NCBI GenBank assembly: GCA_020847275.1
Contig: JADLCI010000006.1
Location: 1 to 61,285 of the forward strand
Length of the DNA: 61,285 nucleotides
Origin: Candidatus Nomurabacteria bacterium
GTDB taxonomy: Bacteria > Patescibacteriota > Minisyncoccia > Phycocordibacterales > JACOZG01
Reading direction: 5' to 3'
The notes under the pieces are model-generated. The model did not search any database. It had not been told where the DNA came from and was given only the letters and a program-made list of their open reading frames with translations. The position numbers were made by a program, and so were the translations under genes. Positions within the stretch are counted from its first letter, which is position 1, and every line of letters begins with the position of its first letter. Below, one piece after another: positions 11,780 through 25,533 of the stretch.

Positions 11780-11808
11780 TTGTGTCAGGAAAACCACTTT
11801 GTTATAAT
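11780..11808 (+). promoter_or_regulatory. extended -10 promoter of the RNA-microprotein unit
   Basis: TTGTGT(11780-85)-17 nt-TATAAT(11803-08) with TG at 11800-01. Confidence 0.75.
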
Positions 11809-11814
11809 GTTAGG

Positions 11815-12120
11815 AGTGAATTTTGAAAATTAGGTTTTTTCTCCGTTTGGTTTGGTAAACCAGGCACACAAGGGGGCACAGCAATTCAGTAGCCGTAAGA
11901 ACACCAAGAAAGTTTCGCACGGTACTGGGACAAGATGATTCGTCATTAAGTCTCGGCTTACCACTGGGATGAGTTAGCCGAAAGGCTACCTTGTCCAGTG
12001 CTGTGCAAAGTTTTGTTGGTGTTTTTTGTTTCGCAGTACACCCCAACTTTCGCGAAAGTTAGGCAAGCACCGGTCGACTAGGGCGCAGAGAAAACTGCTG
12101 ATTATTAAGACCTAATTTTA
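11815..12120 (+). ncRNA. unidentified ~300-nt highly structured RNA (ncRNA or very long leader)
   Basis: Closing helix AAAATTAGGT(11826-35)/ACCTAATTTT(12110-19); TTTTCTC/GAGAAAA; ~35-bp helix 11897-11934/11990-12026 with G-U pairs; UUCG and GAAA tetraloops. Confidence 0.7.
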
Positions 12121-12125
12121 GTCAA

Positions 12126-12269
12126 ATGACTATTTGCAGGCCATTCATTACCTTGCGTAATGGACGCGTGTTATTCGCATCTGAAGTAGGACGCAAGGCG
12201 TTCTGCTTCGATGTTGACAAAGAAAGACCGAAAAAGCCCCCGAAGCTTTTAAAAGCTAAGGAGGTCTAG
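12126..12269 (+). CDS. 47-aa basic microprotein (not in ORF track)
   Basis: ATG 12126 to TAG 12269: MTICRPFITLRNGRVLFASEVGRKAFCFDVDKERPKKPPKLLKAKEV; fills the gap between the RNA and the terminator. Confidence 0.65.
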   Translation: MTICRPFITLRNGRVLFASEVGRKAFCFDVDKERPKKPPKLLKAKEV

Positions 12270-12282
12270 TTCGGAATCCATT

Positions 12283-12322
12283 GAAATACCGCTTTCGTCT
12301 GACGGGGGCGGTATTTCTTGTT
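12283..12322 (+). terminator. intrinsic terminator
   Basis: GAAATACCGC/GCGGTATTTC 10-bp stem extended by G-U pairs, then TTGTT. Confidence 0.75.
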
Positions 12323-20825: not shown

Positions 20826-20951
20826 ATGGAAGAATTTGACAATATGGAAATGGGGGGAGAGGAAGAAGAATTGGAGGAAACTGGGGATGGAAATCTGGGA
20901 GGAGAAGACTTGGGTGATGATGGCGACGATCTAACGGCTGACGACATGTAA
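20826..20951 (+). CDS. 41-aa ultra-acidic microprotein (not in ORF track)
   Basis: MEEFDNMEMGGEEEELEETGDGNLGGEDLGDDGDDLTADDM*; purine-rich against the local C-rich + strand. Confidence 0.6.
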   Translation: MEEFDNMEMGGEEEELEETGDGNLGGEDLGDDGDDLTADDM

Positions 20952-22088
20952 GAAGCGCCGTTTTCCTACCTTTAGTTTAATCTCGGCAGTAAAAATCTGA
21001 TCGACAACGGTCAGATTTTTATTTGGCCACTCTGTCACCGCCCCCTCCTCCACCAGACGACGAAAATCAGATTTAGACTTCACCGCGCCAGCACGCGATA
21101 AAATTTCTGACAGTTTCTCGCCATAACTTGCATTGATCTCTTCCCACTCTTCCGGTTCCTCCCCCCTTTGAAAAGTATTGATAAAATTTTCCTGGGCCCG
21201 ATCCGCTTCTGACTCATCGTAAATCAGAGACACCACCTCCCGCGCTAACTCCATCTTAGCTTCCTTGGGATGTCCAGATAAAATATGTTTTATTTGCGAA
21301 TCCGTAAGACGAGTTAGAAGTTCCAAGCCCGGGGCAACTAAATCATCGGACCAACTCATTATCTTTCCATAAGCATCACTGGGCGTGTCGGTGAAAGAAA
21401 CCATATTCCCCTCTGTCTTTCCCATTTTTAAACCCGCAGAATCGGTCAATAGTTTGGTGGCCACCACAAACTTCTCCTTGCCCCGCATCTTCTTCAGAAG
21501 ATCGCGACCAACCAGCATGTTGAAAATCTGGTCATTACCACCGATTTCCATATCAACTTCCAACGCCACCGAATCATAACCCTGCATTAGCGGGTAGAGA
21601 AATTCGTGCAAAAAAAGATCCTTATTCTCCGCAATCCGTTTCTGAAACATATCCCGCTTAATGGTCTGAGCAAGGGTTACTTGCGAGGCTAGCTCTAGAA
21701 CCTCCGCAAACGAGAGCTTAGCAAGCCATTCACTATTGTGACGAAATTCTATTTTATCTAAATCTAGAATCTTACCGATCTGTTCGCGGTACAACTTCAA
21801 ATTATTCTCTATCTCCTCGGGTGATAAAGTTTTCCGTACCGCCTTCTTGTCTGTGGGGTCGCCGATACGCGCCGTGAAATCACCAAACAGAACTACGATC
21901 TGATGGCCCTCTCCCTGCCAATCGCGCAGTTTAAGTAAAACAGAAACATGACCAAGGTGAAGTGTCGGCCCCGTTGGGTCAACGCCCCAATAAATCCGCA
22001 ATTTTCGGCCACCACTCAACTCCTTCTTCAGTGCTTCAGAAGAAGGGAACGTGTGAGAAACGCCACGAGTAAGTAGCTCCGAATTCAT
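20931..22088 (-). CDS. tyrS: tyrosine--tRNA ligase
   Basis: GVDPTGPTLHLGH (HIGH), YPLMQGYD, GGNDQIFN, KMGKT, C-terminal S4 KVGKRRF. Confidence 0.97.
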   Translation of the reverse strand: MNSELLTRGVSHTFPSSEALKKELSGGRKLRIYWGVDPTGPTLHLGHVSVLLKLRDWQGEGHQIVVLFGDFTARIGDPTDKKAVRKTLSPEEIENNLKLYREQIGKILDLDKIEFRHNSEWLAKLSFAEVLELASQVTLAQTIKRDMFQKRIAENKDLFLHEFLYPLMQGYDSVALEVDMEIGGNDQIFNMLVGRDLLKKMRGKEKFVVATKLLTDSAGLKMGKTEGNMVSFTDTPSDAYGKIMSWSDDLVAPGLELLTRLTDSQIKHILSGHPKEAKMELAREVVSLIYDESEADRAQENFINTFQRGEEPEEWEEINASYGEKLSEILSRAGAVKSKSDFRRLVEEGAVTEWPNKNLTVVDQIFTAEIKLKVGKRRFLHVVSR

Positions 22089-22155
22089 TTTGCCTATTTT
22101 ATCACAAGATTTTCCTCATCAGAAATAAGTTTACTTTAGAGCATTGTTTGCATAA

Positions 22156-22183
22156 TTGATAAATCTCGCCTATTTACTATAAT
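22156..22183 (+). promoter_or_regulatory. sigma70 promoter of an accessory cassette
   Basis: TTGATA-16 nt-TATAAT; SD AAAGGAGGT downstream at ~22199-22207. Confidence 0.75.
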
Positions 22184-22215
22184 AGCGGCAGTCCTTTGAA
22201 AGGAGGTACTGTTAG

Positions 22216-22320
22216 ATGAGACGAGCCATTTGTGGCTTAAACACGGCCTTAAATGGCTCGTCTCATTCCGAGACCAGTCGCTTGTCGCTGGAGCGAATCC
22301 GGCCCCCAAACAAGGAGTGA
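22216..22320 (+). CDS. 34-aa leader ORF coupled (GTGA overlap) or -1 frameshifted to the downstream gene
   Basis: Strong SD, then ATG 22216: MRRAICGLNTALNGSSHSETSRLSLERIRPPNKE*. Confidence 0.5.
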   Translation: MRRAICGLNTALNGSSHSETSRLSLERIRPPNKE

Positions 22321-22976
22321 CAACAATTACGACGAAACCGATCACATCCGCTTCTCGGCGAAGGATACGGACTATATCTTTGGCTCAGTCAATCCTTGGC
22401 GCAGATTTCATCACGCCAGAGGAAATCACAAAGGCTCGCTCGAGCATCTTTTATACCGACGAAAGGGTCGCGGCACTCGTCGAAAGTCTACCATCGAAAG
22501 AGGTACTCATGTGGTGCAAGGAGAAAGGTTACGCCGTCATCCCCACACCACCTCAGGATTGCTCGACCCTCGACATTCGGGAGATCCAGTTTGCTCACTT
22601 CCACTCGAAGACGGGCGGGTGGTATTCCGACCAGAAATTCGCTCGCGAAGACAAGACAGGGTTCGGATGGCTCGCCATCAAGAAAACTCCAGTCGCAAAC
22701 TCGACCAGCAAAAACTGGACCGAGCAGAACAAGCTTCTGTTGGCACTTGAGAAGGTGCCGAATGCCGCTGAGATGAGCTGGTTCATCACGACCTATTTAG
22801 AGGTTCGTGGCGTCCGACTCCTCGAAAACATCTATGTTTGGACGTCCAGTCTCGGCTCGAACGGTCGTCGCGTCTACGTCGGCCACTTCAATGTCGATGG
22901 CCTCCTCGTCAGCCACTATTGGGGCGCCTATCGCTTCGACGGCATCGGCCTGTCCTCTGCCCGGAAGTTCAAGTGA
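22317..22976 (+). CDS. hypothetical protein with a C-terminal DGR variable-region-like segment
   Basis: C-terminus WTSS..NGRRVYVGHFNVDGLLVSHYWGAYRFDGIGLSSARKF; NNY codon bias in the last ~40 codons; start uncertain. Confidence 0.75.
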   Translation: MTTITTKPITSASRRRIRTISLAQSILGADFITPEEITKARSSIFYTDERVAALVESLPSKEVLMWCKEKGYAVIPTPPQDCSTLDIREIQFAHFHSKTGGWYSDQKFAREDKTGFGWLAIKKTPVANSTSKNWTEQNKLLLALEKVPNAAEMSWFITTYLEVRGVRLLENIYVWTSSLGSNGRRVYVGHFNVDGLLVSHYWGAYRFDGIGLSSARKFK

Positions 22977-23015
22977 TCCTTGCAACCTTGAGGGTTCGTA
23001 CCTCTTGAATACTTG

Positions 23016-23052
23016 AGCCCCCGCGAAAATTTTTTCGCGGGGGCTTTTTTTA
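23016..23052 (+). terminator. intrinsic terminator
   Basis: AGCCCCCGCGAAAA...TTTTCGCGGGGGCT hairpin plus T-run. Confidence 0.88.
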
Positions 23053-23088
23053 TCAAAAATTCCCCAGAATCTATGTTATAATCAACAA

Positions 23089-25533
23089 ATCAAATCGTTA
23101 ATTTTTAAGTTAATTCTCCTCTTTCTGATTTTCTGCTTCCTCGGCGGTGGCGTTCTTCTACTTTGGACCACCAATCTAGAAATCCCTTCTTTCGAAGCTT
23201 TTTCCGAACGAATCGTGGCCAAATCTACGAAAATCTACGACCGAACAGGTGAAGTTTTGCTCTACGACATCCACGACACCGTGAAACGACGCGTTGTTCC
23301 TCTGGAACAGATCTCGAAGAATGTGAAGAACGCCACAATCGCCATCGAGGACGACCAGTTCTATCAACATGGGGGCATTCAGGTCAGTGCCATCTTCCGC
23401 GCCCTGCTCGCCAATTTGGGCGCTGGGACAAAACAGCAAGGCGGATCAACGATTACCCAGCAATTGGTGAAAAACTCGCTCCTAACGCAAGATAAGAGCT
23501 GGTCACGAAAAATTAAAGAGCTAGTCTTGTCTATCCGGCTGGAAAAAAAGATGAGCAAGGATGAAATTCTTGGCCATTACCTCAACGAAATTCCCTACGG
23601 CGGCAATATCTACGGCGTGGAAGAAGCCGCCCAAACTTACTTCGGTAAAAGTGCACTGGATGTGAACTTGGCCGAGGCAGCTTACCTTGCCGCTATTCCT
23701 AAAGCGCCAACTTTCTATTCACCGTATGGTCAGAATAGAGACAAGCTCGATGAGAGGAAAGATGTTGTCCTGGCGCGGCTAGCCGAACTTGGATTTATCA
23801 CCGAAGCAGAACATCGCCAAGCTCTGGCCGAGAAGGTTACCTTCTCGTCATCAACGGAACGTGGGATAAAGGCACCTCATTTCGTGATCTGGGTGCGCGA
23901 TTATCTGGAGAACAAATACGGCATTGAGGCCCTAAATTCTCGTGGCCTGAAAGTAACCACCACGCTCGACTGGCCACTACAAGCGGCTGCCGAAAAAATC
24001 GTAGCAGAAACCGCCGAAGAAAATGCAAAAAAGTTTAACGCCAAGAACGCTGGCCTAGTGGCCATTGATCCAAAGACTGGACAAGTGCTAGTGATGGTCG
24101 GTTCTAAAGACTATTTCAATACGGAAGACGAAGGTAACTTCAATATTATTCTCGCTCACCGTCAGCCTGGTTCTGCCTTTAAACCTTTTGCCTACGCTGA
24201 AGCATTCAAGAAAAACTTCACCCCCGAAACGATGCTCTTCGATTTAGAAACCCAATTTGATACGGCCTGTCAAAACGGTGGTAATTGTTATAAACCAGTA
24301 AACTACGATAACAAGTTCCGCGGGCCGATGAGCATGCGCGAAGCTCTAGCCCAATCAATCAACATCCCCTCAATAAAAACCTTGTACCTTGCCGGCATTA
24401 ACGACACCCTAGCTCTTGCGAAGAATATGGGAATCACCAGTCTCGGCAATGCCAACCAATACGGACTAACACTTGTGCTTGGTGGTGGCGAAGTCTCCCC
24501 GCTTGAATTAACCAGCGCCTACGGCGTTTTCGCAAACGATGGAAATCGTTTACCCTACACCTCCATTCTAAAAGTGGAGGACGACACGGGAAGAATTCTG
24601 GAAGAATTCACTCCTCATCCCCGAGAGGTACTTGAACCAAATATTGCTCGCCTGATCTCAGATGTTCTCTCTGATAATAAGGCAAAGATTCCATCCTACG
24701 GCGCTAACTCTCCACTCTTTTTTCCGAACCGCGAAGTAGCGTCAAAAACTGGTACAACGAATGACTATAAAGACGCGTGGATTGTGGGCTACACCCCCAG
24801 TCTAGTTGTGGGAGCTTGGGCCGGCAACAACGACAATACCCCAATGGAGAAGAAGGTTGCCGGACTAATTATCGTGCCAATGTGGCGCAACTTCATGGAT
24901 GTAGCTCTGGAAAAATCCACTGTAGAAAATTTTCCTGACCCAGAACCAGCAAGCACTGAATCTCTACCGTTAATGCGGGGTTTCTGGCAGGGTAGCCACG
25001 GCTATTTCACCGATAAAATTTCGGGCAAAATTGCCACCGAATATACGCCAGTTGAACTGCGCGAAGAACATGTCCTGACACAAGTTCACTCCATTCTTTA
25101 TTGGCTAGACAGAGAAGATGATCCTCAATTTCCCCTTTGGGAAGAACCAGTTCGTCGTTGGGTCTCGGAGAAAGGAATCGTCGAACAAACAGATTCAGCC
25201 ATCCCCACGGCGATAGATGATATTCACCGACCAGAATTTGAACCTAAAATTAAAATTCTTAATCCATCACCATCAGAAATCTATGCCCCCGAACAGCAAG
25301 TTACCATACGCGGTTCTTATGTTGGGCACTTCCCCATCGGAAAATTGGAATTTTTCTTGAACGATCAATATCTTGGTCAAAGTGAACGGGCCCCATTTGA
25401 TTTTACATTTATCCCCAAATATACCTCTCCTCTCAAGCCAGTCAACGAGCTAAGGATCGTGGCTCACGACAGTGTCGGCAACCGTAGTGAAATCAAAGCA
25501 CCACTCTCTCTTTCAGTTCTCCCAACAACTTAG
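23089..25533 (+). CDS. class A penicillin-binding protein (PBP1A type); N-terminus extended to a probable ATC start
   Basis: IAIEDDQF, QGGSTITQQLVKN, YLNEIPYG, RQPGSAFKPF, SINIP, SKTGTT motifs, C-terminal Ig-like domain; the TM anchor lies upstream of the ORF-track start (23215). Confidence 0.9.
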   Translation: MKSLIFKLILLFLIFCFLGGGVLLLWTTNLEIPSFEAFSERIVAKSTKIYDRTGEVLLYDIHDTVKRRVVPLEQISKNVKNATIAIEDDQFYQHGGIQVSAIFRALLANLGAGTKQQGGSTITQQLVKNSLLTQDKSWSRKIKELVLSIRLEKKMSKDEILGHYLNEIPYGGNIYGVEEAAQTYFGKSALDVNLAEAAYLAAIPKAPTFYSPYGQNRDKLDERKDVVLARLAELGFITEAEHRQALAEKVTFSSSTERGIKAPHFVIWVRDYLENKYGIEALNSRGLKVTTTLDWPLQAAAEKIVAETAEENAKKFNAKNAGLVAIDPKTGQVLVMVGSKDYFNTEDEGNFNIILAHRQPGSAFKPFAYAEAFKKNFTPETMLFDLETQFDTACQNGGNCYKPVNYDNKFRGPMSMREALAQSINIPSIKTLYLAGINDTLALAKNMGITSLGNANQYGLTLVLGGGEVSPLELTSAYGVFANDGNRLPYTSILKVEDDTGRILEEFTPHPREVLEPNIARLISDVLSDNKAKIPSYGANSPLFFPNREVASKTGTTNDYKDAWIVGYTPSLVVGAWAGNNDNTPMEKKVAGLIIVPMWRNFMDVALEKSTVENFPDPEPASTESLPLMRGFWQGSHGYFTDKISGKIATEYTPVELREEHVLTQVHSILYWLDREDDPQFPLWEEPVRRWVSEKGIVEQTDSAIPTAIDDIHRPEFEPKIKILNPSPSEIYAPEQQVTIRGSYVGHFPIGKLEFFLNDQYLGQSERAPFDFTFIPKYTSPLKPVNELRIVAHDSVGNRSEIKAPLSLSVLPTT

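Follow-up and report, generated by a model that had tools for sequence, protein, structure and literature searches.

An orphan, probably frozen target gene of Patescibacteria diversity-generating retroelements

The 61,285-nt stretch of DNA analysed here (hereafter, the window) encompasses a gene (22383-22976) that, judging from its homologs, is a target gene of the diversity-generating retroelements (DGRs) of CPR/Patescibacteria, elements that rewrite part of a gene via mutagenic reverse transcription; its predicted variable region (VR) lies at 22850-22964. The window copy is an orphan and, in our assessment, probably is a frozen, slowly decaying relic. An earlier note, made from the letters alone, had proposed a DGR-type VR in a stand-alone target gene, either remote or frozen, and serviced in trans. 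The first part of this proposal is borne out by homologs with 60-77% protein identity, in which the VR and the template repeat (TR) differ at adenines only and which have Avd and a DGR reverse transcriptase (RT) as neighbours. With regard to the second part, frozen fits better than remote and active because of the marks of decay, the clonal VR, and the lack of a template or RT in the window.

The variable region and its templates in related loci

In 37 in-frame codons (22851-22961) of an ORF that ends at the TGA at 22974-22976, the third positions are 27 C, 7 T, 3 G and 0 A. Codons ending in C or T account for 34 of the 37, compared to 53% in the preceding 156 codons of the same gene, and codons ending in C for 73%, compared to 37% in the same upstream portion. 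With the gene's own body as the reference, the binomial tail is 4.2e-7 for at least 34 C/T-ending codons out of 37 and 7.2e-6 for at least 27 C-ending ones, and the adenine content is 11.7% in this segment versus 26.3% in the gene body. This recount agrees with the codon bias reported in the earlier note, and the translated C-terminus, ...VYVGHFNVDGLLVSHYWGAYRFDGIGLSSARKFK*, is identical to the protein end quoted there.

In a large protein collection, 267 Patescibacteria proteins show the above level of identity to the window protein; the relatives that are named all belong to Patescibacteria (Paceibacterota, Taylorbacteria). A profile search expands the family to 2068 cluster representatives, and a metagenome scan for the target family added 36 loci to the comparison. 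In one of the related loci, L001, the last ~115 nt of the target gene are repeated 477 nt downstream of the VR, and over 110 nt, the VR and this TR differ at 18 template adenines and at 0 other positions. The gene order in this locus is target gene, TR, then bAvd, and then an RVT_1 gene, and L008 contains the same DGR parts arranged differently. Altogether, 11 related loci carry a TR (L001, L008, L011, L012, L017, L025, L027, L029, L030, L035 and L046), with 0-2 non-adenine mismatches versus 9-20 adenine mismatches in 110 nt. Both Avd and the DGR RT were identified by tblastn in 10 of these 11 loci; in the remaining one, L029, the contig ends at the template. On these comparative grounds, the last ~115 nt of the gene can be considered proven to be a DGR variable region in the relatives. 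The DGR of this family is of the CPR type and corresponds to clade 2 in Roux et al. 2021 (PMC8144416).

The window sequence aligns with the templates of these relatives. An nhmmer profile built from the TRs of 10 loci matches positions 22850-22969 with E=1.5e-13, and of the mismatches between the window VR and related TRs, 17-21 fall on template adenines and 14-27 on other positions. The variable columns of the VR coincide with AAC codons of the related TRs; the claim that all variable codons derive from AAY/GAY codons holds for most of them, at AAC and GAC codons of the related templates. The 3' end of the VR (22945-22964) contains no A and therefore should escape mutagenesis. As evidenced in the relatives, a template RNA with AAC variable codons is reverse-transcribed by the DGR RT together with Avd, errors are introduced at the adenines, and the resulting cDNA takes the place of the VR; the window VR would have been written in the same manner. 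The C/T-ending, adenine-poor codons would then result from NNC codons left between the codons of a fixed scaffold.

A codon pattern of this kind could, in principle, have nothing to do with a DGR and reflect an ordinary codon bias or the chance composition of a GC-rich foreign gene, and indeed, the gene as a whole is richer in C-ending codons than the neighbouring genes. But the bias is local (P ~4e-7 against the gene's own body), the segment in question aligns to genuine template repeats with the E-value given above, and it is in these columns that the family is hypervariable, the VR/TR differences in the relatives being adenine-only. This explanation is already refuted by these observations, and its residual probability is negligible.

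In the family alignment, the body of the protein is strongly conserved and variation is free at the x positions of the last ~45 residues, in which the C-terminal scaffold reads TSSLDSxGxRVxVGxFxSxGLxVxxxWxxxRxxxIGLSAARK. Within clusters of 90% identity, the VR (x) columns hold up to 9 residues, compared to 1-2 in the body columns. No family was identified for the target protein in Pfam or PHROGs, a sequence-profile search of PDB gave no match, and the target family was not found in a viral contig collection. An AF2 model of the window protein, built with diverse representatives, has a pLDDT of 97.6 and a pTM of 0.93 (an earlier model from a shallow alignment had a pLDDT of 60.5, and its fold search was meaningless). 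The top Foldseek matches of the model are nearly all FGE, EgtB, PorK, C-type lectins and the Treponema DGR protein TvpA, with a probability of 1.00 and a TM of 0.62 on the target for the best match. Because the E-values range only from 0.01 to ~2, with none at or below 0.001, the C-type-lectin/FGE-type fold appears likely, short of proven; the outcome of the structure prediction that the earlier note had called for is consistent with such a fold.

Some members of the family deviate at the C-terminus. P0034, P0036, P0068, P0298, P0306 and P0307 have frameshifted C-termini that run into the element following the VR (...VILDPLRACPS); others (P0060, P0066, P0097 and P0112) contain internal duplications of 8-20 residues in the VR. 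The frameshifted C-termini and the VR-internal duplications may be by-products of imprecise retrohoming.

The cassette, its insertion site and the post-VR element

The gene resides in a compact cassette between tyrS and the PBP1A gene (Table 1). The window flanks (22089-22129 and from ~23045 onward) align with L047, the closest relative found (TyrS 86% identical), in which the same flanks enclose an unrelated gene (L047:4983-6000), equipped with a promoter and a terminator of its own, for a multi-pass membrane protein of 214 aa. In L048, which is more distant, a 72-aa ORF is all that the tyrS/PBP1A site contains (L048:5617-6000). Because L047 has the same flanks around a different gene and L048 only the short ORF, the cassette (~22130-23046) is best described, on the strength of the alignments, as a lineage-specific acquisition, with no TR or RT scar attached. 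The window and L047 cassettes both end at TTTTTTATCA, and the GC content is 0.51-0.56 within the window cassette versus ~0.43-0.47 outside. Given the two different occupants, the tyrS/PBP1A intergenic site is a putative cassette slot.

Table 1 Predicted features of the cassette and its neighbours in the window
Feature	Coordinates	Strand	Basis
tyrS, left neighbour of the cassette	20931-22088	-	Flank
Putative foreign cassette, ~0.9 kb: promoter, leader, target gene, VR, hairpin, terminator	22130..23046	+	Flank comparison
Sigma-70-type promoter, TTGATA-16-TATAAT	22156..22183	+	11/12 consensus positions
5' leader hairpin, ~18 bp stem, window fold -36.8 kcal/mol	22216..22266	+	Conserved in family
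Degraded remnant of the ancestral N-terminal coding region	22302..22382	+	Alignment A2
Target (variable protein) gene, TTG start, 197 codons + stop, family core domain	22383..22976	+	Homology
VR, DGR type	22850..22964	+	TR-profile alignment, family hypervariable columns
Adenine-free VR 3' end, IMH-like segment, TCGGCCTGTCCTCTGCCCGG	22945..22964	+	Matches last VR/TR-identical stretch in L001, L008
Post-VR element: four CTTG units + short hairpin (GAGG 22990-22993 / CCTC 23001-23004)	22977..23014	+	Family consensus
Strong intrinsic terminator: 14 pairs, 9 G-C, then T run	23015..23053 (or 23015-23046)	+	Fold + covariation
PBP1A gene, right neighbour of the cassette	23215-25533		Flank

Both the position and the sequence of the promoter are kept in the family alignment A2 (TTGACA ... 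TATAAT). The leader hairpin is found in 13 other family loci as well and shows apparent compensatory changes, GCCATTT/AAATGGC in the window versus GCTTTTT/AAAAAGC elsewhere; a search of Rfam yielded no family above the threshold for this hairpin, only sub-threshold terminator-like matches. A box at 22184-22215 lies downstream of the promoter and upstream of the leader hairpin, and GAGAC recurs just 3' of the hairpin (22272-22276), so that an alternative pairing is possible. No RNA runs containing the stretch were found.

Downstream of the stop codon, the four CTTG units (22979-22982, 22987-22990, 23004-23007 and 23012-23015) occur at the positions and with the 8/17/8 spacing given in the earlier note, and the hairpin (22990-23004) and the terminator described there are both present. 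The family consensus in this part of the cassette is TGATYCTTGA-CCCTTGAGGGCTTGTCCCTCTTGAATACTTGAGCC, followed by the terminator. Most of the relatives contain five CTTG units, 8-9 nt apart; the window lost the middle unit, which is the hairpin loop. The family hairpin, GAGGG-CTTGT-CCCTC, consists of 5 bp, with changes on both sides in 3 of the 5 pairs, whereas the window hairpin reads GAGGG-TTCGT-ACCTC, with G.A as the top pair and the loop TTCGT instead of CTTGT. The terminator helix covaries in the family as well: both partners have changed in 4 of 9 pairs, and pairing is maintained in 98.8% of the cells.

The suggestion that the CTTG/hairpin tract may be the homing signal is, by analogy, reasonable for the family because the covarying hairpin sits at the position of DGR target-recognition hairpins. 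The tract is not restricted to this locus but belongs to a family-wide element, of which the window has a slightly eroded copy. In BPP-1, stem structure is important, and so is the sequence of the loop (PMC3240598). Similarly to the BPP-1 mtd site, with its IMH and hairpin/cruciform (Guo et al. 2011, PMC3240598), the family has a VR end that is rich in GC and free of adenine, with a short inverted repeat downstream; this repeat has a covarying stem and a loop that shows little change across the family. Unlike that site, the family stem comprises only 5 bp and is located ~25 nt past the VR end, beyond the stop codon, and the window copy has one mismatch and an altered loop.

The family appears to have spread across hosts. 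Nucleotide identity of the non-variable body (for example, 22371-22850 compared to L001 and L016) is 0.76-0.82 between different hosts. Because the dS of the family body is low (0.37-0.8) although the TyrS proteins of the respective hosts are only 67% identical, this high nucleotide conservation points to horizontal spread. The family bodies exceed the flanking genes in GC content, at 0.52-0.61; within the set, the window copy and L018 share the lowest value.

One might go further and envisage the cassette as an autonomous unit that, without the need for TR-Avd-RT to travel along, passes from one Patescibacteria genome to another, lands in slots such as tyrS/PBP1A, and is picked up in trans by any resident DGR of the same family. 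If this were the case, the orphan copies would be a reservoir of switchable targets rather than dead relics. We consider this scenario rather improbable.

Orphan state and decay of the window copy

The claim that the window contains neither an RT nor a template withstood all searches. Across the 61,285 nt, there is no TR-like gapless match on either strand, tblastn detected no Avd or RT, and the RT and Avd profile HMMs had no match among the six-frame ORFs at E<=10. An nhmmer search of the window with the TR and leader profile returned the VR as the only match and no TR-leader RNA. In a genome contig collection from which the source genome is absent, a scan with the adenine-free 20-mer from the VR 3' end produced two unrelated chance matches only. 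The RNA at 11780-12322 was considered as a candidate TR RNA and rejected, the TR-leader profile having no match there.

This state is common in the family. Avd, RT and TR are missing within 6-10 kb of the target gene in L003/L019/L020, L005, L014, L016, L021 and L022, and among the loci examined, orphan targets are about as frequent as complete cassettes. In L007 (6950-7140, minus strand), a half-decayed TR is present, the first ~70 nt of which match the VR with adenine-type mismatches before the similarity is lost; no Avd or RT was found near this half-TR, and the locus looks like an intermediate stage of DGR loss. An orphan copy thus is an ordinary state for this family, and no new mechanism is required.

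The most conspicuous damage in the window copy affects the 5' end of the gene. Of the first 60-65 codons of the relatives, which start with MKxLNTSALVTADSPKGQRATETF..., ~150 nt (~50 codons) are missing in the window, and there is no ATG at this position. The N-terminal homology resumes at CGCTTCTCGGCGAA in another frame, and one extra base in GACTATATCTTTGG (GACTA-CGGTTTGG in the relatives), just before LAQSILG, restores the main frame. The called TTG start has a poorly spaced Shine-Dalgarno box. The segment following an AAGGAG box (22314-22334) contains no ATG; an in-frame GTG (22317) abuts this box, and an in-frame ATT (22326) is at a normal spacing from it. The ORF nevertheless remains open for 248 codons, and the promoter, the leader hairpin, the adenine-free VR end and the terminator are intact. 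The N-terminal loss need not inactivate the protein because core-only forms of ~200-210 aa are common among the relatives.

The body of the gene has also diverged. In 100 columns of the body with a conservation of 90% or more in the family, the window deviates 14 times, compared to a family median of 3 and to 10 in the next worst of 120 members; the 13-14 changes at near-invariant residues on the private branch include R154W, Y75H, F140L and F148L. The 41 private substitutions in 480 body nt comprise 26 GC>AT versus 10 AT>GC changes and, by effect, 28 nonsynonymous versus 13 synonymous ones, that is, a dN/dS of roughly 0.7, on a private branch that is long in part due to the lack of close relatives in the sample. 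These substitutions fit a combination of relaxed constraint and drift toward the AT-richer host composition.

The VR itself shows drift. At 47 VR sites where 8 related TRs all share one base other than A, the window has 5 changes (two G>A, two C>T and one G>C). Among the VRs paired with those 8 TRs, 7 have no such change, and L025 has 2, at the edge of the stretch. The orphan L003 has 14 changes of the same kind at the same 47 sites, and its VR is identical in four independent assemblies; clearly, L003 is a frozen orphan. The five changes in the window could instead reflect an unsampled template lineage.

Freezing does not by itself imply decay: one useful VR variant might have been kept by purifying selection as a domesticated binder of fixed specificity. 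Along these lines, the ORF is intact at least over 22383-22976 and has its own promoter and terminator, pairwise dN/dS values against the relatives are 0.19-0.43, core-only architectures are common, and the model of the window sequence folds with high confidence. However, most of the signal in the pairwise dN/dS comes from the common history of the family, whereas the private branch has the higher ratio and the excess of changes at near-invariant residues given above, and the ancestral ATG is gone, leaving a TTG start with a badly placed Shine-Dalgarno box. We regard domestication as very unlikely.

The other alternative is that the gene is a remote but active target, with a DGR (TR, Avd and RT) on another contig rewriting the VR in trans and homing via 22945-22964 and the downstream hairpin. 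DGRs can reach remote targets, and avd-TR-brt function in trans (Wu et al. 2018, PMC5758913). Furthermore, the window copy has kept its promoter, leader, IMH-like end, hairpin and terminator, and the third positions of the VR still are 73% C, as in templates. Against this possibility, the 61-kb contig has no TR, Avd or RT; two insensitive look-ups, covering five windows of the genome, were negative as well, the one with the VR and post-VR DNA identifying no other window and the one with a family RT including no window of the genome among the 8 matches listed. The two G>A changes at template-invariant G sites are beyond the reach of adenine mutagenesis, which cannot turn a template G into A, and the gene body is under relaxed constraint.

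Population data bear on the same question. The earlier note had suggested a search for adenine-specific hypervariability, and none was apparent: VR unitigs identical to the window were recovered from four samples of a wastewater study (X1, X3, X4 and X5), with no variant unitigs over the VR, at a depth of 2-3.6x in contigs rather than reads, so that low-level diversification would be missed, given this depth and the loss of rare variants from Logan contigs. The four runs of this source study also contained no TR-like unitig on the VR at 80% likeness, and comparison of the four runs with the RT-Avd-TR of L011 revealed only short RT active-site matches from several organisms and one other family VR fragment, none of them attributable to this genome. 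Taking the clonal VR together with the other evidence, we find a remote and active target unlikely.

Under the preferred interpretation, that of a frozen relic, the VR would have been written before or at the time when the cassette separated from its retroelement and would have remained frozen since, with the gene under relaxed constraint and subject to GC-to-AT drift. A core-only lectin-fold protein of fixed specificity may still be expressed, or else the gene may be on its way to a pseudogene.

The family VR fragment from the comparison with L011 is a unitig of run X1 (at L011:5301-5335, with a depth of 2) that reads ...NIYARVSDLG... and ...GGLSVSDYW, and the same wastewater metagenome contains several distinct DGR-like RT fragments; none of these could be traced to this genome.

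Relation to known DGR systems

The targets of CPR DGRs are reported to be without Pfam or transmembrane domains that could be recognised (Roux et al. 2021, PMC8144416; Wu et al. 2018, PMC5758913), and remote targets are missed by RT-centred surveys (Roux et al., PMC8144416). The window gene belongs to the same family as 'DGR clade 2' (Roux et al. 2021, PMC8144416) or the 'CPR set' (Wu et al. 2018, PMC5758913), with a C-terminal NNC VR, and like these target genes, it is small, GC-rich and devoid of a recognisable Pfam or transmembrane domain. It differs from them in that no TR, Avd or RT is present within 22 kb upstream and 38 kb downstream, and in the loss of the N-terminal extension and the ancestral start codon.

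The Treponema denticola DGR has seven targets (Wu et al. 2018, PMC5758913; Nimkulrat et al. 2016, PMC4891356). Like such remote targets, the window VR gene is far from an RT and has kept an IMH-like end and a hairpin; in contrast, remote targets are defined by a genomic TR that matches except at adenines, whereas for the window gene none was found and there is drift at template-invariant non-A positions. Degenerate, RT-less DGR loci have reportedly been described by Dore et al. in 2024. The window, too, is a DGR component without an RT, but only the target cassette is kept, with no TR remnant, whereas L007 keeps half of a TR.

Both remote targets and RT-less remnants are already described in the literature, and because the loci examined include about as many orphan copies as complete cassettes, the case is an ordinary one for DGR biology. 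It illustrates that a DGR VR can be recognised from the codon pattern alone and places the gene in a very large Pfam-less family. Its value, a modest one, is in documenting the fate of a hypervariable gene without a retroelement, namely, drift from GC to AT, a relaxation of constraint and an eroding recognition hairpin, and in providing a clean example of close relatives that differ by a cassette exchange at a single intergenic site. Three features are somewhat out of the ordinary: the clean cassette replacement at tyrS/PBP1A, the leader hairpin that is absent from Rfam, and the high nucleotide conservation of the family.

The complete DGR cassettes of the family have neighbourhoods of their own: those in L001 (13247-18880) and L008 (6170-7501 and 14670-16081) adjoin genes for a serine recombinase and N6/N4 DNA methyltransferases and a terminase-like gene, which suggests that complete cassettes are carried on an integrative island.
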